Shown one piece after another: positions 41,097 to 49,786 of a DNA stretch of 64,000 bases; position 1 is the first letter of the stretch, and every line of letters begins with the position of its first letter. The stretch covers positions 1 to 64,000 of IMG/VR virus record IMGVR_UViG_3300049459_000229. One strand, given 5' to 3'. Below the pieces are notes generated by a model that was not told the DNA's origin, made no database searches, and saw only the letters and a list, made by a program, of their open reading frames with translations. Position numbers and translations under genes: made by a program. This stretch comes from a virus.

Positions 41097-43126
41097 TATG
41101 CAGACGTCCCAGGTTGGTAGGCGACGATGTCGGAAGCCCAGTCGGCGCCCAGCACGGCAGCGGTGCCGGCGCCAGCTCCCAGTGGGATGTTCGTCAGGTC
41201 GACGGTGCTGTCAGAATTTGCCAGCGAACTGCCAGGTGTGACAGTACCGACCGTCCCGATTCGGCTCTGGCGCCACTCCCACACGATCGTCGTGCCGGCC
41301 GCGACAAGCTGCCCAGCATTGTTGACCAGCGGCCCCATTTTGAAGCTGCCGGTGGCGGCCGTAATCGTCAGCGTGAACGCGTTCGAGTCGACGGTCTGGC
41401 CGGCGGTGTCGGTGGCGCGCACTTTCAGGCCTGACGTCGTCGCTATCGTCGACACGGTGCCGCTGATGACGCCGGTGCCGCTGTTGACGACAAGGCCACT
41501 CGGCCAGGCGACGCCAAGCGGACTTGCGCTGTAGGTCAGGGTGTCGGTGTCGCTGAACTGGCTGGCCACACTCACCGGTGTCAGGGCGACACCACTCTTG
41601 CCACTGATGTTGGCGATCGCACCCGGGAAGGTCGGCGCGGCGTTGCTTGCCGAGATCGTGATCGAGAAACTGTTCGAGTCCGCGGTGGCGCTGTTGGCAT
41701 CCGTCGCCCGGATCACGATGCCAGTTTTTGTTTCGACCGTGGTCGGCGTGCCGCTGATGGCGCCAGTCGAGGTGTTCAGACTCAAGCCGGCCGGCAGCGT
41801 GCCTGCTTGCAGCGAGTAGGTGAACGGCGTGGCCGATCCGGTAAAGAACGTCGAGTTCGTGAAGCTGGCGGCGCTGCCGACGGCACCGGTGCGGTTCGGG
41901 ATGGTGCCGCTGAAGGCGACAGGCGAGGCTGCGGGTGGCAGATACTCGTAGGGGCCGATATCCCAAGCGGCGCCGGCTGGCCGCGCGCGGCCATACGCGT
42001 CGTTTGCCGTGTAGGTCAGCTCTGCGCCGGTCAGAGTCTGGCCGACATCCTTGAGCGGCGAGGCGGCCGTCAGGCGGAAGTCGTGCGTGCCGTCGGACGC
42101 CACCTTGGCGTACACCGTATTGTCGTAAGCGATCGTGGTCCAGCCCGACTGGACACCGTCGGTGTACCCCTTGACGACGACGTGCGACAGCGCGTCCGTA
42201 CTGACGGCCGAGCAGCCCATGACCGCCACGTTCTTGAAGGTGCTGCCCACGTAGGTGCACTGCAGGCCATTGGCCAGCTTCGTGCCGCCGGTGGCGGCGA
42301 ACGTGGTGTTGTAGACTTTTACGGCGCTGTCGATGCGGGCGATGATCGCAGCCGAGTCGCCCTGGCTTGTGTTTTCGACCAGCGAGTTGGTCAGCGTGCC
42401 GCCTGCCATGTAGAGCACACCGCGCAGGCCCGAGTTGTTGCAGGTGCCTTCGAAGATGGCGCGATCCACCGAGTTGTTGGCCACCGAGCCCACCGCGGAC
42501 TTGAACAGCGCGATGCCTGCTGTCGCGGATCCGGAGTATTTCATCTGGATCTTTGAAAAGCGGAAGTAGTCGACTTGGACGTCGATCCCCAGGGTGGCTC
42601 CGCTGGTGATGTCGATGTACGCGTAGCTCGTGTCGAGACGGAGCGGGGTCGCATCAGGGGTGGTGCTGTCGAAGATGGACGCATTAGGCGCCGTGGTCAG
42701 CTCGTAGTAGCACGTCGCACTGGTGGTCTTGCCGCTGATGGTGTTGGTCGTGCTGCGAGGTACTCGCGTCTTCAGCATTTGACCCTGCCAGATCACTTGG
42801 CCGATGTTGACAGCGGCGCCGGATGCCGGGGCGCTGCTGAATGCCGCCGCGCTGCCATTCAGCGATCCGACAGTTGCCGTCTTGGTGGTGGCGTTGTAGG
42901 CGGTGATCAAGCGGGTCTCGCTCCCGATGGTCATCGTGTTGCCGACATAGGCGCCAGTCGTCGCCGAGGCCGTGCTGTCGAGCGGGATGACCGACGTGGT
43001 AGCGCCCGACAGTGCCGTCAGGTTGAGGTTGACGGTACAGTCCTTCGGGCCGGCCGCCGCCCACGCGATGTCGTCGGTGTAGTCGGCGCTGGTCGGGGCG
43101 ATTGTTTTTACGACGGTCGTAACCAT
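41096..43126 (-). CDS. Virion protein with beta-helix-like region and two putative Ig (He_PIG) domains
   Basis: LPAGLSLNTSTGAISGTPT and WPSGLVVNSGTGVISGT; DFRL...D..G..R...WDIGPYEY choice-of-anchor-like motif. Confidence 0.75.
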   Translation of the reverse strand: MVTTVVKTIAPTSADYTDDIAWAAAGPKDCTVNLNLTALSGATTSVIPLDSTASATTGAYVGNTMTIGSETRLITAYNATTKTATVGSLNGSAAAFSSAPASGAAVNIGQVIWQGQMLKTRVPRSTTNTISGKTTSATCYYELTTAPNASIFDSTTPDATPLRLDTSYAYIDITSGATLGIDVQVDYFRFSKIQMKYSGSATAGIALFKSAVGSVANNSVDRAIFEGTCNNSGLRGVLYMAGGTLTNSLVENTSQGDSAAIIARIDSAVKVYNTTFAATGGTKLANGLQCTYVGSTFKNVAVMGCSAVSTDALSHVVVKGYTDGVQSGWTTIAYDNTVYAKVASDGTHDFRLTAASPLKDVGQTLTGAELTYTANDAYGRARPAGAAWDIGPYEYLPPAASPVAFSGTIPNRTGAVGSAASFTNSTFFTGSATPFTYSLQAGTLPAGLSLNTSTGAISGTPTTVETKTGIVIRATDANSATADSNSFSITISASNAAPTFPGAIANISGKSGVALTPVSVASQFSDTDTLTYSASPLGVAWPSGLVVNSGTGVISGTVSTIATTSGLKVRATDTAGQTVDSNAFTLTITAATGSFKMGPLVNNAGQLVAAGTTIVWEWRQSRIGTVGTVTPGSSLANSDSTVDLTNIPLGAGAGTAAVLGADWASDIVAYQPGTSA

Positions 43127-43135
43127 GTCTGGCCT

Positions 43136-44659
43136 TTATGGGAACTGAACCGGAACCCAGGTGTTCGAGTTCGGGATGGTGATTGTTTTCGGGGTCTTGC
43201 TGCCGGTGTAGATTTCGCTGACCGGTGCGACTGTGACCGTGCACGCGGCATCCTGCGGCCGGCGCGTCAAGGTGTACGCGGTGCCAGGCGCCGGCGCCGT
43301 CGAGAACGGCGCATCAACCGTCACCCGCTTGTACGAGCCTGCTGCTGTAGTGGCGCCTGCAGCGGACATGACCGTCTCCGCATCGTAGGTGGTGATAGTG
43401 CGGGTTTCACCGTTGATCGTGAGCGTGCTGCCGACGTAGATACCGTTGATCTCGCTTTCACCCTCTCCGGCGTTTCCGTAGGGGAAGGCGATGACCGTGG
43501 TGGTCGACAGGCCCGTGTAATTTCCTTGCGCGTCCTTCTTGCTGTTCGTGTACCCGACGTAGGTCCACGGCGTGACGCAGGTGACTTCGCACGACCAGCC
43601 GGTAGGCGTCTCCTGCACGTTGCGGAAGGTCAGGTCGATGTTGATGCCGCCCGCCTTGTGGACAGCCGGATCCTGGTCACGGCTGAAATTGCTGAAGCAC
43701 GGCCAGCCAGTGCCGATCCGGAAGGTGCCGAACGGATAGCCGCGCAGGATTTCGACCAGGCGCGCTTCGCCGTGCTGGCCGTCATTCCAGTAATACGCAA
43801 ATGCGCGCCCCGATTGGCGCAGGGCGGCGATCATGGCGTCGCTCTCTGCCATGGTCGCGAAGTTGTCGTTGCGGCCCAGGCACCAGCCGATCCAACGAAC
43901 CTTGTTGGCCTGGTTGGACACATAGGCAATCGCGTTCAGGTAGTCCCACGACGAGCCACCGCCGTCTTCCGGCGCAAGCTGTGGGGCCGTAGCCTGGGTA
44001 AATGTCTGGTCGGTGCCATTCCACATGGCCAGGCCGATAGTCGACTTGCCGCCATTCCAGCGCGGGCGGTCCGGATACAGCGCGGCGAACAAGTCATAGA
44101 GGCGCAGGCCGAACGAAGCCGTGCCCCAACCACCCATCGAGCCACCAGTCAGGCAGACGCCGAGCTTGTCGGCGATCGGCAGCGTATCGAGCGCGTACTT
44201 GTACATCGCTCTGTACCGCCGCTCCTCGAACAGGTGCAGTTTCCCGTCGGGCATGACGAAGCCCATGTGGAAAGCCTCCTTCTTCGCGCTGGCATCGTTG
44301 TACCACTCATCGTTTGGCCGCAAGTTGATGCGGCTGTGGTCGTATGCGATGCAAGCACTAAAGCCGAAGACCTTGCGGTTGTCGTAGTCCCGGCCGCCGA
44401 AGGTCGGCGAGGTGCCGCCCATGGTCATGAAGCCGTCGACCGGTACGCGGAATTGGCGCCCGGTGGTGTAGTTGGGACCACCGGACCCATGCAACTCGAC
44501 GACGAACGGCTTGGTGTTCCATTCGGTCGTGGTTGGGTAGCCGCCGGTGTCCGAAAACACCGTAACCTTGGTCGGATCGAAATAGATCGACGGGCCGGCG
44601 CGCCCCGCATAAATCGGCTGGCCGCTGGCGACCGTATAGCTGTCAACTGGGCGCGTCAT
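43136..44659 (-). CDS. Alpha/beta-hydrolase (esterase-like) protein
   Basis: LHGSGG oxyanion motif, TGGSMGGWG nucleophile elbow, G-R-N-D and WNDGQH completing a putative Ser-Asp-His triad. Confidence 0.75.
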   Translation of the reverse strand: MTRPVDSYTVASGQPIYAGRAGPSIYFDPTKVTVFSDTGGYPTTTEWNTKPFVVELHGSGGPNYTTGRQFRVPVDGFMTMGGTSPTFGGRDYDNRKVFGFSACIAYDHSRINLRPNDEWYNDASAKKEAFHMGFVMPDGKLHLFEERRYRAMYKYALDTLPIADKLGVCLTGGSMGGWGTASFGLRLYDLFAALYPDRPRWNGGKSTIGLAMWNGTDQTFTQATAPQLAPEDGGGSSWDYLNAIAYVSNQANKVRWIGWCLGRNDNFATMAESDAMIAALRQSGRAFAYYWNDGQHGEARLVEILRGYPFGTFRIGTGWPCFSNFSRDQDPAVHKAGGINIDLTFRNVQETPTGWSCEVTCVTPWTYVGYTNSKKDAQGNYTGLSTTTVIAFPYGNAGEGESEINGIYVGSTLTINGETRTITTYDAETVMSAAGATTAAGSYKRVTVDAPFSTAPAPGTAYTLTRRPQDAACTVTVAPVSEIYTGSKTPKTITIPNSNTWVPVQFP

Positions 44660-44662
44660 GCT

Positions 44663-45085
44663 TTATGCCGGCGTCGGGAACGCGATCGAGCTGGCGGCCA
44701 GCGTGAAGGTGCCGGCGGTCGTGCTCACGTTAGAGCCGAAATCGTCGACGGCGATCAGCTCGTCGGTCGAGGACGCGCCGCCGCGCCGTTTGTAGTAGAC
44801 GGCCTGGCGCGCGGTGATCGTGCTGTTCGGCCAGGTGACGGCGCCGAAGTTGATCGTGTTTTTGTGGTTGGTCGTGTCCTTGGCGAGGGTCACGGCGACC
44901 GGGATGCCGCCTGCGGCGTAACCGGTGCCTGATACTTCGCCGGTCACGCTCGAGCGGAAAGCATGGGTGCCTGCGTTCGGCGTGTAGGTGGCGTCGACCA
45001 GCATCACGTAGAAGGTGTCGGTATCGAGGTCGATGTTGCCGCGAAATACCTGATCGAGAAAGCTGTCGTAACCGGTCGAGGCCAT
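44663..45085 (-). CDS. Small virion fibre-type protein
   Basis: Start MASTGY (45085); IDLDTDTFYVMLV..YTP..EVSGTGYAAGG..VTWPNSTITAR..DFG. Confidence 0.75.
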   Translation of the reverse strand: MASTGYDSFLDQVFRGNIDLDTDTFYVMLVDATYTPNAGTHAFRSSVTGEVSGTGYAAGGIPVAVTLAKDTTNHKNTINFGAVTWPNSTITARQAVYYKRRGGASSTDELIAVDDFGSNVSTTAGTFTLAASSIAFPTPA

Positions 45086-45185: not shown

Positions 45186-45214
45186 TTGACACAAGACAGA
45201 AGTTTGCTTACCCT
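45186..45214 (+). promoter_or_regulatory. sigma70-type promoter for rdgC/replication operon
   Basis: TTGACA-N17-TACCCT; spacer resembles the promoter at 53270. Confidence 0.55.
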
Positions 45215-45248
45215 AATAATCCCTTTCCCAAGAGAATTCACCTACCCT

Positions 45249-46103
45249 ATGTGGCTCAAAAACGCAACCATCTTCGGCATCAGCCCGAAGGCGCAATTCC
45301 CTGTCGAGCAGCTTGAGGCTGCTCGTTTCGTTCCCGCTGGCGACCTGCAGCTGACCTCCAGCGGCTTCGTGCCGATTCAGGGCGAGCTGGCCTACAAGCA
45401 GGGCAAGCACACCTTGCTGCGCTTCATGATGGAAAAGAAACACCTGCCGGGCTCGGCCGTGGCGGTGAAGCTGGAGGAGCGCTGCGCCGAGTTGGAAGAT
45501 CAGCAGGGCTTTCGGCCGGGCAAGAAGGCGATGAAGGAGCTCAAGGAGCAGGTCATCGACGAGCTGTTGCCGCGCGCGCTGTCGTCGCGCCGTTCGACCC
45601 TGGTCTGGATCGATCAGGACCAGCACCGCATCGTGATCGATTCGACGTCGAATGCCGTGATCGATGAGGTCCTGCGCGTGCTGCGTAAGACTTATGAAGG
45701 CATCGACCTGGGTATCTGCGATGTCAGCTGGCCGCGCGCCAAGGTGCTGACCGAGTGGGCGATCGACAACGAGCCGGCTGACTTCACGGTCGACGACACG
45801 GCGGTGTTGGCCTACCCAGGTGAACGCGGCAAGGTTGTGAAGTTCGAACGCGCTGATCTGAGCCAGAAGGATGTGCAGCAGCATTTTGCCGCCGGCGCCA
45901 TCGTGCAGTCGGTCGCCATGACCTTCGGCAGCCGCCTCTCGTTCGTCATGACCGACAACAACCAGATTCGCAAGATTAAGCCGCTAGACGTGCTGCAGGA
46001 AGGCCGCGACGCCGAGAAGGACGTCGACCGCTTCGCCGGCGACGTCGAGCTGATGACGCGCGAGCTGGGCGTGCTGTTCGATCGCCTGGTGCGGGAAGCA
46101 TGA
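45249..46103 (+). CDS. rdgC: Recombination-associated protein RdgC
   Basis: MWLKNATIF, F.P...Q..SSGFVP, EKKHLPGS.V, ELLPRA. Confidence 0.92.
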   Translation: MWLKNATIFGISPKAQFPVEQLEAARFVPAGDLQLTSSGFVPIQGELAYKQGKHTLLRFMMEKKHLPGSAVAVKLEERCAELEDQQGFRPGKKAMKELKEQVIDELLPRALSSRRSTLVWIDQDQHRIVIDSTSNAVIDEVLRVLRKTYEGIDLGICDVSWPRAKVLTEWAIDNEPADFTVDDTAVLAYPGERGKVVKFERADLSQKDVQQHFAAGAIVQSVAMTFGSRLSFVMTDNNQIRKIKPLDVLQEGRDAEKDVDRFAGDVELMTRELGVLFDRLVREA

Positions 46104-47215
46104 GCACAGCCTATTACAACGAGTTTGATCCCGGCGCCGCGGCGTGGCTCCGGGAGCTCATCAAAGAAAAACTGATCGCGCCGGGCGTGGTCGACGAAAG
46201 GAGCATCGCAGATGTCACACCCGGAGACCTTGCCGGATTTACCCAGTGCCACTTCTTCGCCGGCATCGGCGGCTGGTCCTACGCTCTCCGACTTGCAGGC
46301 GTCCCTGACAGCCGTCGAGTGTGGACGGGCAGCGCTCCTTGCCAGCCTTTCTCCTCGGCAGGCGAAGGCGCAGGGTTTGATGACGAGCGGCACCTATGGC
46401 CCGCCCTCCACCACCATGCCCGCGTCGGACGTCCTGCAGAAATCCTTGGAGAGCAGGTTGCAAGCAGCCTCGTCGACCCATGGATCGACCTTGTACAAGC
46501 TGACCTGGAAGCCTTGGGTTACGCCGTCGGGTCGGTCGCGTTCCCGTCTGCGGGCATCGGTGCTCCGCACATCCGCGACCGCTGCTACTGGGCAGGCCGG
46601 CTGGGTGACGCCGACCTCCCGCGACTGGAAGGACTCGGGAGCCGATATCAAGCCGCGCTCGGACAATGGCAAGGAGCGGCTGGATCAGCTGCCCAGGCAA
46701 GCGAACTTGTGCGGCTGGCCCACGCCGACGCTTTGCGACAGCGGCCGGGTGCCGGCGCCGGACTTCACCACCAAGAACCTCACGCTGAACCATGGCGCGG
46801 TGCTGACGGGCTGGCCCACGCCGCGCGCGGCGGACGGCTCGAAGGGCGTGGACCCGACAGCGGACACGCTGCGCGGGACGGATCTGCCGACCACGGCCAG
46901 CTGGGCGGCTGGGATCGCCGTGCCGGGCCCGGCCCGACTAACGGCTACTGGGAAGCTGCTGACTGGCTTGCATGCCGAGACAGCCGATGGCGGCCTGTTG
47001 AGCCCGGCACACAGCCGCTGGCTCATGGGCTACCACGCAGCCTGGGATCGTGCGGCGCCGGGGTGGCAGGACTGGCACGCGTGGCAGGCCTTGATGCAGC
47101 AAGCCTTGGTCGAGCAAAGAGCTATCGCGTGACGGCGCTGCGCGGCTATGGCAATGCGATCAACGTCTACGCCGCGAAAGCATTTATTGAAGCGTTTTAC
47201 GGAGTATCTGAATGA
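46100..47215 (+). CDS. C5 DNA cytosine methyltransferase, alpha (catalytic) chain
   Basis: Motif I FFAGIGG, IV GSAPCQPFS, VI EQV, VIII PHIRDR, X YGNAI; motif IX absent in this frame. Confidence 0.9.
   Translation: MSTAYYNEFDPGAAAWLRELIKEKLIAPGVVDERSIADVTPGDLAGFTQCHFFAGIGGWSYALRLAGVPDSRRVWTGSAPCQPFSSAGEGAGFDDERHLWPALHHHARVGRPAEILGEQVASSLVDPWIDLVQADLEALGYAVGSVAFPSAGIGAPHIRDRCYWAGRLGDADLPRLEGLGSRYQAALGQWQGAAGSAAQASELVRLAHADALRQRPGAGAGLHHQEPHAEPWRGADGLAHAARGGRLEGRGPDSGHAARDGSADHGQLGGWDRRAGPGPTNGYWEAADWLACRDSRWRPVEPGTQPLAHGLPRSLGSCGAGVAGLARVAGLDAASLGRAKSYRVTALRGYGNAINVYAAKAFIEAFYGVSE
46212..47132 (+). CDS. Nested alternative-frame methyltransferase beta chain (putative TRD + motif IX); true start uncertain
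   Basis: +1-frame ORF with GWxTP repeats and LSPAHSRWLMGYHAAWD motif IX-like end. Confidence 0.7.
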   Translation: MSHPETLPDLPSATSSPASAAGPTLSDLQASLTAVECGRAALLASLSPRQAKAQGLMTSGTYGPPSTTMPASDVLQKSLESRLQAASSTHGSTLYKLTWKPWVTPSGRSRSRLRASVLRTSATAATGQAGWVTPTSRDWKDSGADIKPRSDNGKERLDQLPRQANLCGWPTPTLCDSGRVPAPDFTTKNLTLNHGAVLTGWPTPRAADGSKGVDPTADTLRGTDLPTTASWAAGIAVPGPARLTATGKLLTGLHAETADGGLLSPAHSRWLMGYHAAWDRAAPGWQDWHAWQALMQQALVEQRAIA

Positions 47216-47547
47216 CCGCTGGAACCCTAGGCCCCTGTGCCAAGCTGGAGGTGCGCTGCACCATCATCACGCCTGACGGCAGCCGCTTCGTCGGCGAGAA
47301 CTGGTGCGCGCACCCTCAGCCGGTCTGCCCGCGCGCGCCCGGCGAAGGGTATGAGAAGTGCCAGACCATCTGCGGTCAGATCGGCCACGCCGAAGAAGTT
47401 GCCGTGATGCTGGCCGGTGATGCCGCGCGCGGCAGCCATGCCTATGTCGAAAACCACACCCATGCCTGCCGCAATTGCCAGGAAGTTCTGTTCGGCCAGG
47501 CAGGGGTCAAAGCGCTGACCATCGGCGCGCCACCGGAGAAAGTATGA
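47212..47547 (+). CDS. Cytidine/dCMP deaminase-family protein
   Basis: GEN..C...HAEE...HACRNC (HxE / CxxC zinc site). Confidence 0.8.
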   Translation: MTAGTLGPCAKLEVRCTIITPDGSRFVGENWCAHPQPVCPRAPGEGYEKCQTICGQIGHAEEVAVMLAGDAARGSHAYVENHTHACRNCQEVLFGQAGVKALTIGAPPEKV

Positions 47548-47923: not shown

Positions 47924-48357
47924 TGGTGATGCCTTACCAGCACTATCCGGATCCGGACCTGACCAAGGTCCAGGCGCTGGTCCGGCGCGTCTCCAGCCCG
48001 TTCTGGATGCACCGGCCTGAAGCCTGGATCTGGCAGCGCCCGGACGGCTACCCGCAAGGGTTTGTGGGGCTGATGGACAGCCCCGGGCTGTGCAACTTGC
48101 TGTGGTTGTCGATGGCATTTGATCGGCCGCCGCAGGTCTACGACGCCAACCAGAACGGCCTTTTCCTGCGGCTACTTAGTGGCGCGCGCGATGCGAAGCT
48201 GGGCGGTGAGCCGCTGACCGACTGGGCCGGCCTGCTAACCCTGCAGGAGTTCATCGACCAGCTGCCGCAAGAGGCGGGTCCAGCCGGCACAATCGCGAGC
48301 ACCTACCCGCTGCTGCGGCTACTCGGCGAAAGGAGGCTTGGCCATGCTGACGCTTGA
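47920..48357 (+). CDS. Hypothetical protein
   Basis: Coupled ORF. Confidence 0.7.
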   Translation: MMVMPYQHYPDPDLTKVQALVRRVSSPFWMHRPEAWIWQRPDGYPQGFVGLMDSPGLCNLLWLSMAFDRPPQVYDANQNGLFLRLLSGARDAKLGGEPLTDWAGLLTLQEFIDQLPQEAGPAGTIASTYPLLRLLGERRLGHADA

Positions 48358-49786
48358 GCAGGTGATCGAGCGCTACCCCTTCCCGCATCCGCTGGGAGGG
48401 GTGATGACGCTCGAGCAGATGCAGAAGGAGGACATCGTCAAGGCGGCATTCTGGCGCCGCGCGCTGCTCGATTTGCCGGTCGGCTATGGCAAGACGGTGA
48501 TCGGCACCTGCATCGCCCTGATGCTGCAGCCGCAGCTGACTGTCATCCTGGTGCCGCCGGTCCTGATCGCACAGTGGGTGGCCTGGCTCAACAGCATCCC
48601 CGGCGCCGGGTTGGCGCTGGCGTATGACGCGGCGCCGAAGAAGCGCCGCGCGCTGCCGCTGGAAACCGCCGACTGGCTGATCATGAGCTACCAGGTTTTC
48701 AACAACGACATCGATTTTCTTTCCGATCTGTGCCGCGACGCTGATGTGTTGCTGGAAGTCGACGAGGCGCAGAACCTGAAAGGTCGTGGCGTACTGTTCA
48801 AGAACGTGCGAAACTTCTCGTCCGGCCGCGACCTGATCACGATGTCGGGCACGATCGCCAGCAAGCCTGGCGATTACTACAGCTACATTAAGCTCAACAC
48901 GCCGGACGTCTACACCAGCTACACCGCTTTTGAAAACATCCACGTGCTCGAACGCGACATCTTCAAGCAGCCGAAGGAGTGGCACAACCTCGACCTGCTG
49001 CAGACGAACTTGAACATGCGCCGTATTCACCGCACGAAAGAGGAGGTGCACTCAAAGCTGCCCAAGGCGAACATCATCCCGATCTACTACGACCTGTCGA
49101 AAGAGCACATGGCGCTGTACCGGCGCCTGATGGATGAGCAGCTGCTGCTTCTGGAGGACGGCGGCAAGATCGATGCCACTACCGCCACGAAGCTGTATCA
49201 CGCCGCCCAGCAGATCGTGCTGGATTTCGGCACCTTCGCCGGCGACCCGGAGAAGCGCTCGGCAATCTTCGACCTGGTCGACGGCATCGCCGATGAAATC
49301 AACCTCGGCGGCGAGATTCTGATGGACGGGAAGGTGCAGCCAGCCAGCAAGCTGATCCTCTGGACCACGCACAGGAGCGTGTCGCGGTTGCTTGGTGAGC
49401 ACATGGACGCTCACCTTGCACCGCTCGGCAAGAAGGGTGTAATGGCTTTCTCCGAGGTCGACTCGAAGGCGAATATCCAGCAATTCATGCACGACCCGAA
49501 TACGGTCAATCTGACTGCACAGCCGAGCAGCGCTGGCGCCGGCCTGAACCCGCAGTACATGTGCTGGGAGTGCGCATATATCCAGATACCGACTACCACG
49601 ATTCCCTTCATCCAGTCGTCAGGCCGGATCGATCGCAAGGGTCAGCGCTACAACCCGAACATCCGGCTCCTGATTGCGCGCGGCACGATCCAGGAGCAGC
49701 TGCTGCAGAACCTATTCAAAAATGATGAACTTGTCAATAGAGCAGCAGGTTCGATAAGCTCCATCAGAAATTTGATTTTCCCGTAG
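48344..49786 (+). CDS. SF2 (SNF2-like) helicase
   Basis: PVGYGKT, VDEAQ, MSGT, GAGLN, QSSGRIDRKGQ; SD AGGAGG. Confidence 0.9.
   Translation: MLTLEQVIERYPFPHPLGGVMTLEQMQKEDIVKAAFWRRALLDLPVGYGKTVIGTCIALMLQPQLTVILVPPVLIAQWVAWLNSIPGAGLALAYDAAPKKRRALPLETADWLIMSYQVFNNDIDFLSDLCRDADVLLEVDEAQNLKGRGVLFKNVRNFSSGRDLITMSGTIASKPGDYYSYIKLNTPDVYTSYTAFENIHVLERDIFKQPKEWHNLDLLQTNLNMRRIHRTKEEVHSKLPKANIIPIYYDLSKEHMALYRRLMDEQLLLLEDGGKIDATTATKLYHAAQQIVLDFGTFAGDPEKRSAIFDLVDGIADEINLGGEILMDGKVQPASKLILWTTHRSVSRLLGEHMDAHLAPLGKKGVMAFSEVDSKANIQQFMHDPNTVNLTAQPSSAGAGLNPQYMCWECAYIQIPTTTIPFIQSSGRIDRKGQRYNPNIRLLIARGTIQEQLLQNLFKNDELVNRAAGSISSIRNLIFP

Follow-up and report, generated by a model that had tools for sequence, protein, structure and literature searches.

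M.EcoHK31I is a C5 methyltransferase made up of an alpha and a beta chain, reportedly described by Lee, Kam and Shaw in 1995. Another relevant group, the C5 methyltransferases of the SPR/phi3T type from Bacillus phages, consists of single-chain orphan enzymes whose specificities have been mapped experimentally and in which the stretch from motif VIII to motif IX holds a tandem array of several short target-reading modules that can be exchanged. Here we set beside these enzymes a methylase gene at positions 46100 to 47215 of a 64,000-nucleotide stretch of viral DNA (IMG/VR virus record IMGVR_UViG_3300049459_000229, positions 1 to 64,000), the whole of which we call the window. In the excerpts of two articles (PMC2836561, PMC3404938), M.EcoHK31I (E. 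coli HK31; YGGCCR) has its beta chain encoded within another frame of alpha, both chains are needed, and the target-recognition domain (TRD) is assigned to alpha. An excerpt of the second article describes M.AquI (CYCGRG) as a two-subunit C5 methyltransferase that is split in the variable region (PMC3404938).

To judge from its sequence and that of its relatives, the 1.1-kb gene in the window is a genuine dual-coding gene, and its two products are likely to form a phage cytosine methylase of the M.EcoHK31I design, with beta completing alpha. Both of the nested open reading frames (ORFs) reported in a preliminary description of the window are present where it had placed them. The first encodes alpha (46100..47215, + strand, 371 aa), which comprises a catalytic core, then a spacer and then a C-terminal block with motif X; the second encodes beta (46212..47132, + strand, 306 aa), which is offset by 112 nt, reads in the +1 frame and is wholly nested in alpha. 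The probable position of the TRD is unlike that of M.EcoHK31I: here, variable and shuffled cassettes, which are candidate target readers, sit in beta.

Taken in the window alone, the open +1 frame is weakly surprising, and it is the comparison of homologues that decides. For that comparison 160 homologous loci were fetched, 80 from viral contigs and 80 from genomes (many of Proteobacteria, and others), and one phage record was added; with the window these made 162 sequences, from which 10 without the exact anchor motif were dropped to leave 152. The preliminary description had named a lack of conservation of the +1 frame as something that would speak against its reading. That frame is kept open in 152/152 loci, being stop-free for at least 239 codons in each (mean 317, with a mean alpha length of 353 aa), at gene GC contents that range from 0.536 to 0.672. 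The +2 frame averages 62 codons, has a maximum of 138 and reaches 150 codons in 0/152 loci. Alpha itself runs to the motif X pattern in 150/152 loci, the other two having variant motifs. Synonymous shuffles show how far these open frames depart from expectation: over the catalytic part, beta is open in 94/96 loci and the shuffles predict 25.4/96, and over the spacer they predict an open alpha in 15.0/96 loci, where the observed 96/96 is biased by the choice of loci through a downstream alpha motif and 150/152 is the fair figure. The third frame is open in 0/96 loci over catalytic part and spacer alike.

Patterns of substitution point the same way and indicate that both frames are under selection. 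We measured third-position entropy in conserved alpha columns, using the 136/152 sequences retained at <85% identity. Outside the overlap this entropy is 1.20 bits (n=31); it falls to 0.67 bits over alpha codons 76-165 (n=46, p=8e-5) and to 0.45 bits over codons 276-312 (n=19, p=5e-6), two segments over which beta is also highly conserved, and it is back to 1.27 bits over codons 346-360 of the motif X block. The spacer of alpha (alpha 171-275; 46610..46924, +) is open, unconserved as alpha protein and predicted to be disordered. Here we used 749 ungapped, frame-blind blastn pairs from 97 loci, a test that replaced clusters based on beta similarity, which favour beta. All of the spacer DNA matches (749/749) are in phase, and the differences between paired sequences amount to 0.418 at beta codon position 3 (position 1 of alpha), 0.132 at position 1 and 0.076 at position 2. 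Because the differences concentrate at beta position 3, beta is the selected protein in the spacer: purifying selection acts there on beta, and alpha is merely kept stop-free.

Beta also has a start signal of its own. A Shine-Dalgarno sequence, AAAGGAG (46197..46203, +), falls inside codons E33-R34-S35 of alpha and precedes the ATG at 46212 by 8 nt. We surveyed this region in the 138/152 loci that have the alpha D-x-R-S motif (segment D-E-R-S-I-x-D-V). An ATG stands at the position equivalent to 46212 in 121 of the 138, and D38 is encoded by GAT in 127, despite the GC-rich composition of these genes. Arg34 is AGG in 64 loci and CGG in 40 (104 combined), and Ser35 is AGC or AGT in 115; since these unusual codons together spell GGAG, that sequence recurs about 8 nt upstream of the beta ATG. 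We infer that beta is translated.

Alpha is the core of a C5 cytosine methyltransferase, and its product would be 5-methylcytosine. The main-frame motifs I, IV, VI, VIII and X listed in the preliminary description are all there, and the core can be aligned to M.HhaI (alpha family profile residues 71-174 with M.HhaI 71-178, E 1.8e-14). Motif IV is PCQ with the catalytic Cys81 (alpha 80-82; 46337..46345, +), which aligns to PCQ of M.HhaI and is invariant in the family; motif VI is GEQV, replacing ENV (alpha 117-120; 46448..46459, +), and aligns to the M.HhaI ENV; and motif VIII is PHIRDR, with HxRxR replacing QxRxR (alpha 156-161; 46565..46582, +), and aligns to the M.HhaI QKRER. Motifs I and X are assigned by sequence pattern and family invariance only: motif I is FFAGIGG (alpha 52-58; 46253..46273, +), in which F52, F53, A54, G55 and G57 are invariant in the family alignment, and the motif X block (alpha 343-365; 47126..47194, +), which lies mostly beyond the beta stop, contains GNAI at alpha 351-354 (47150-47161). 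Pfam PF00145 matches alpha at 40.1 bits (cut-off 22) over residues 76-171 only, NCBIfam TIGR00675 gives 26.4 bits, under its cut-off of 100.65, and phrog_363 matches at E 2.9e-74.

The preliminary description had remarked that motif VI reads EQV rather than ENV. The change characterizes the whole family and is no fault of the window copy, because E118, Q119 and V120 are invariant in 93/93 rows of the alpha family alignment; across the family, both the N-to-Q change in motif VI and the Q-to-H change in motif VIII are invariant or nearly so. In structure, the alpha model matches the catalytic domain of solved C5 methyltransferases, with 112 Protein Data Bank (PDB) matches at E<=1e-3 that include M.HhaI, M.HaeIII, DNMT1 and 8yf3 over ~190 columns (E 4e-8 to 1e-6). 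The top match is 8yf3, a DNA cytosine C5-carboxymethyltransferase. As its E value is within ~20-fold of that of M.HhaI, nothing is concluded from this ranking on the transferred group, which may nonetheless be worth checking given the N-to-Q change in motif VI.

AlphaFold models alpha alone with a predicted local distance difference test score (pLDDT) of ~90 for residues 1-170 and <50 for residues 173-281, and the C-terminal helix is confident again. The impression recorded in the preliminary description, that the region between motifs VIII and X reads like off-frame text, was borne out, as far as the conserved C-terminal block, by this low confidence and by the lack of conservation of that stretch as alpha protein. 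A single-chain enzyme holds a TRD and motif IX between motifs VIII and X; in alpha, residues 171-275 are unconserved, are modelled at pLDDT <50 and evolve in the phase of beta. Past the spacer comes a conserved block (alpha 276-312, with a hairpin at 288-300; 46925..47035, +), which overlaps the C-terminal block of beta, both frames being conserved there, and then a lineage-specific insertion (alpha 313-342; 47036..47125, +), which overlaps the beta tail and is shared with the relatives P0006, P0008, P0014, P0020 and P0022.

Beta has two conserved blocks. The N-terminal block (beta 41-125; 46332..46586, +) lies over alpha motifs IV-VIII and has a helix, as well as a hairpin around TWKPWVTP. 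The C-terminal block (beta 240-283; 46929..47060, +) includes L-S-P-A-H-S-R-W-L-M-G, a representative of the strongly conserved pattern L-x-P-x4-W-L-M-G, and the stretch LSPAHSRWLMGYHAAWD (beta 263-279; 46998-47048), both of which resemble motif IX by eye only. The preliminary description had the ORF end in this motif IX-like stretch; the stretch is indeed present, but 27 residues follow it, most of them in a tail (beta 284-306; 47061-47129, +) that overlaps the alpha insertion and is shared with P0122, P0124 and P0126. The beta family is large and almost entirely nameless. It numbers 3,688 proteins at E<=1e-3 in a word-based search, and in a full hidden Markov model search the cluster representatives with E<=1e-3 came to 19,798, of which 8,074 had E<=1e-30. 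Pfam and NCBIfam gave no match to the window beta, which does match phrog_1008 (E 8e-30) and phrog_31772, both labelled DNA methyltransferase. Alone, beta models poorly (pLDDT 62.9, predicted template modelling score (pTM) 0.31, with beta 71-120 at pLDDT 75-85), behaviour that would be normal in a subunit dependent on a partner chain.

Between the two blocks stand the three GW(P/V)TP repeats that had been noticed at the outset, GWVTP at beta 130-134 and GWPTP at 168-172 and 200-204. They delimit three cassettes, each starting with W-x-T-P, which we counted in the 88/152 betas to which the boundary patterns applied. Cassette 1 (beta 131-168, starting WVTP; 46602..46715, +) belongs to a type found in 9/88 betas, at positions 1, 2 or 3; cassette 2 (beta 169-200, starting WPTP; 46716..46811, +) belongs to a type found in 4/88, at positions 2 or 3; and cassette 3 (beta 201-239, starting WPTP; 46812..46928, +) is a singleton type among the 88, and occurs also in the relatives P0122, P0123, P0124 and P0127. 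Altogether the 88 betas hold 213 cassettes: 5 betas have no cassette, 7 have a single one, 35 have two, 28 have three and 13 have four. We take the cassettes to be repeats of one module because 199/213 fall in a single similarity cluster; a BLASTP comparison of beta with itself returned the identity alignment alone. When cassettes were re-clustered at 45, 55 and 65% identity, the 55% level gave 89 types, of which 54 are singletons. A given type can recur at another position or beside other types, and close relatives differ by whole cassettes: cassette 2 is missing from P0122, P0124 and P0127, where another type replaces it, and the beta of P0123 has five cassettes, the window's three among them.

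This arrangement fits the pattern expected of exchangeable specificity modules and makes the cassettes candidate target readers; the several specificities suggested in the preliminary description would accord with such shuffling. A bolder proposal is that they are independent target-recognition modules, giving a multispecific cytosine methylase with its array of specificities encoded, in the other frame, over the stop-free spacer of alpha; we hold this only tentatively, and consider it possible but rather doubtful. If it is true, cassettes could be gained, lost and swapped in phase without harming alpha, and the overlap itself would be a device for the fast evolution of anti-restriction specificity.

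The preliminary description had also proposed an AlphaFold model of the heterodimer, and a model of the complex supports binding between alpha and beta. All three runs gave the complex a score of 0.89, against 0.06 for the highest-scoring of 3 controls; the benchmark mark is reached by 58/80 solved complexes and 2/110 mismatched pairs, counts that hold only roughly here, as the alpha-beta model used alignments built for this analysis. The runs share at least 74% of their contacts, of which there are 565-598, and partner pLDDT is at least 65. The lowest-error contacts join beta 268-274, in the motif IX-like stretch, with alpha Y350 and alpha 155-157, beside motifs X and VIII. These are not an artefact of shared DNA, because they fall off the 37-38-residue offset at which the chains share nucleotides. 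The conserved N-terminal block of beta also contacts alpha in the model, as does its tail, with alpha 339 and 342 of the insertion touching beta 287-291. Insertion and tail (47036-47129) may be a co-evolving extension that is written in both frames.

Several observations weigh against the two-chain interpretation, or against parts of it. Some concern the nested frame itself. Within the window alone, a +1 run of at least 318 codons arises in 2.4% of 5000 synonymous alpha shuffles (p = 0.024); the upstream part of beta contains a stop in 2/96 loci; and the loci are mutually related, so that counts across loci are not independent events. At the start of beta, 17/138 loci lack an ATG at the conserved position, and in this genome the gene caller picked the ATG at 46380, which gives a truncated 250-aa beta (P0121). 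Third-position entropy over alpha codons 40-75 is 1.14 bits (n=20), not significantly reduced. Because wobble suppression is missing from these codons, the first ~35 residues of beta appear weakly constrained, and since they show no extra constraint the true start of beta could be further downstream. Other observations concern the part that beta plays. Pfam PF00145 is found in 0/96 beta family members at E<=1, and searches of PDB sequences with beta, both as a single protein and as a profile (E<=10), gave 0 matches. Foldseek with the low-confidence beta model gave 0 PDB matches at E<=1e-3, and the best hit in a wide VIA-align search has a Z of 3.8 and a root-mean-square deviation (rmsd) of 4.1 over 52 residues, all within beta 64-126. 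These empty searches do not establish that beta is unrelated to methyltransferases. In the C-terminal block, residue 275 (47034-47036), directly behind L-M-G, is His, which only the relative P0122 shares; at least 121/125 relatives have Pro at this position, in the pattern G-[LYF]-P. Finally, the score of the complex may partly reflect likeness to solved single-chain methyltransferases, and the alpha and beta alignments stem from the same DNA.

How much these points matter depends on what else could account for the locus. That the +1 ORF is a chance product of high GC and of the amino-acid composition of alpha, with alpha the only gene, is favoured by the GC content of the window (58-67%), by its many long spurious ORFs and by the shuffle result within the window; yet the frame is open in 152/152 loci, down to 54% GC, and beta is conserved with 19,798 relatives, a conserved start signal and spacer substitutions in its own phase. 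We give a chance origin next to no credence, and the comparative data rule it out as far as sequence alone can. A single polypeptide made through two programmed frameshifts, reading frame 0 through motif VIII, +1 through the cassettes and the motif IX-like block, and then -1 back to motif X, would have the appeal of the textbook order of motifs I-VIII, TRD, IX and X, and one database protein (P0205, 333 aa, from one 3-kb contig) does read alpha to about residue 130 and then the beta frame. But P0205 changes frame before motif VIII, which it consequently lacks, and looks like an assembly error, probably a metagenome indel. Frameshifting needs neither an open frame 0 in the spacer nor an open and conserved +1 frame over motifs IV-VIII, both of which are found, and it leaves the conserved Shine-Dalgarno sequence and ATG of beta unexplained. 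Nor are the expected signals frequent: downstream of the motif IX-like block and ahead of the beta stop, 1/124 loci have a -1 slippery heptamer in the phase of beta, and homopolymer runs after motif VIII occur in 0/113. Alpha 276-312, moreover, is conserved in frame 0 although it would go untranslated on the frameshift path. We regard this explanation as very improbable.

A different kind of alternative accepts that beta is real and denies that it is a methylase subunit. It would then be an overprinted gene with some other role, for example in DNA binding, regulation or counter-defence, and alpha would act alone or with a host factor. This would account for the failure of beta to show a profile or fold link to methyltransferases, and alpha does retain a conserved C-terminal block of its own. 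Against it stand the lack of any conserved or structured segment in alpha at the place of the TRD, the large and reproducible modelled interface between the chains, and the contact in that model between the alpha insertion and the beta tail, both of them lineage-specific. By analogy, the precedent of M.EcoHK31I also speaks for a subunit role, and we consider an unrelated function for beta unlikely.

The two-chain interpretation can be put as a mechanism. Frame 0 would yield alpha, made up of a large domain that binds AdoMet and carries the catalytic residues, a disordered spacer of ~105 residues, a hairpin block and the helix that bears motif X. Frame +1 would yield beta from its own GGAG and ATG inside alpha codons 33-39, and beta, weakly constrained at its N-terminus, would continue with a block wrapped around the alpha core and with three W-x-T-P cassettes that are homologous but have diverged, before a C-terminal block with a likeness to motif IX. 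Alpha and beta would assemble into one enzyme, to which beta would supply the small domain and the DNA-reading part that single-chain enzymes have between motifs VIII and X, and the enzyme, an orphan, would probably methylate the DNA of the phage and so act against restriction. The conflict inherent in double coding would be eased by geometry, with conserved beta lying over conserved alpha and the variable cassettes over a spacer that need only be stop-free. The need for both chains, the setting of specificity by the cassettes and the anti-restriction role are predictions of the proposed mechanism.

The gene lies in part of a phage genome. Genes for a large terminase subunit, portal protein, primase and DNA polymerase are present in the window as well. 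Upstream, alpha adjoins rdgC (45186-46103), and downstream there is an SNF2-type helicase (48338-49786). ATGA start/stop overlaps occur at 46100-46103 (rdgC/alpha) and at 47212-47215 (alpha/next ORF); because they link the methylase gene to rdgC on one side and to the following ORF on the other, they suggest that the three form one translationally coupled operon. The next ORF (47212-47547, 111 aa) weakly matches the zinc-binding region of dCMP/cytidine deaminases (PF00383, E 0.0049), at 17.2 bits where the cut-off is 25, and a deaminase beside a cytosine methylase could bear on nucleotide or base modification. GC content reaches 67% in the methylase region. A 785-codon ORF (42575-44932, +) lies antisense to a 507-aa gene (43136-44659, -), one of many such cases; because the window has so many long antisense and spurious ORFs, long open frames mean little here by themselves.

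To our knowledge, bacteria and their phages very rarely have same-strand overlaps of ~0.9 kb in which both proteins are conserved. The nested methylase overlap described here recurs in thousands of phages and prophages, and gene annotation by standard means usually records one protein of the pair and misses the other, keeping the truncated 250-aa beta in this genome, and alpha alone in the records of N15 (gp58) and BcepC6B (g33). In K1ind1 (NC_041897.1, ORF29/ORF28) and PhiXhv-18 (PV764600.1), both nested coding sequences bear the name 'DNA methyltransferase' (the +1 offsets being 88 and 82 nt), and these double annotations are automatic or unexplained. In our literature searches, no article emerged in which this phage family is presented as dual-coding; neither PMC3711429 nor PMC3483164 deals with the gene, and the ShiLan papers (PMC11855218, PMC9957025) are about methylases of actinophages. 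The family thus offers a natural test case for two proteins that share one sequence, and a warning for gene finders and for studies of dN/dS. If the cassettes set specificity, it would also represent an anti-restriction device that is compact and can readily evolve, and would supply methylases that are split by nature, a kind of enzyme that, according to an excerpt of one of the articles cited above, has already been used as an engineering scaffold (PMC2836561).

How closely, then, does the window gene follow the known enzymes? We compared it with M.EcoHK31I in design, following the published excerpts. The preliminary description had claimed the M.EcoHK31I design for this locus, and much of that claim stands: the nested frames, the start signal, the suppression of wobble variation, the phase of the spacer and the complex model all agree with it, whereas the location of the TRD differs. 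As in M.EcoHK31I, the second chain lies wholly inside another frame of the first, on the same strand, and the large chain carries motifs I-VIII and X. The small chain of M.EcoHK31I is described as carrying motif IX, and beta has an element that looks like motif IX by eye; the chains of M.EcoHK31I must associate for activity, and the association of the window pair is a prediction of the complex model. The differences, within what those excerpts describe, are of three kinds. The TRD of M.EcoHK31I is in its alpha, whereas the corresponding part of alpha in the window is a spacer, unconstrained and predicted to be disordered, and it is beta that carries the variable cassettes. Motif IX alone is in the beta chain of M.EcoHK31I, whereas the window beta is nearly as long as its partner (306 versus 371 aa) and overlaps motifs I-VIII as well. 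And M.EcoHK31I is a member of a restriction-modification pair, whereas the window gene is an orphan in a phage replication module. M.AquI, as its excerpt describes it, shares with the window gene the division of a C5 methyltransferase into two polypeptides, but its small chain has motifs IX and X, and its chains are successive rather than encoded in nested frames. The enzymes of the SPR/phi3T type, for their part, carry their target-reading modules within one chain, whereas in the window the modules, as candidate readers, are placed in a separate and overlapping chain.

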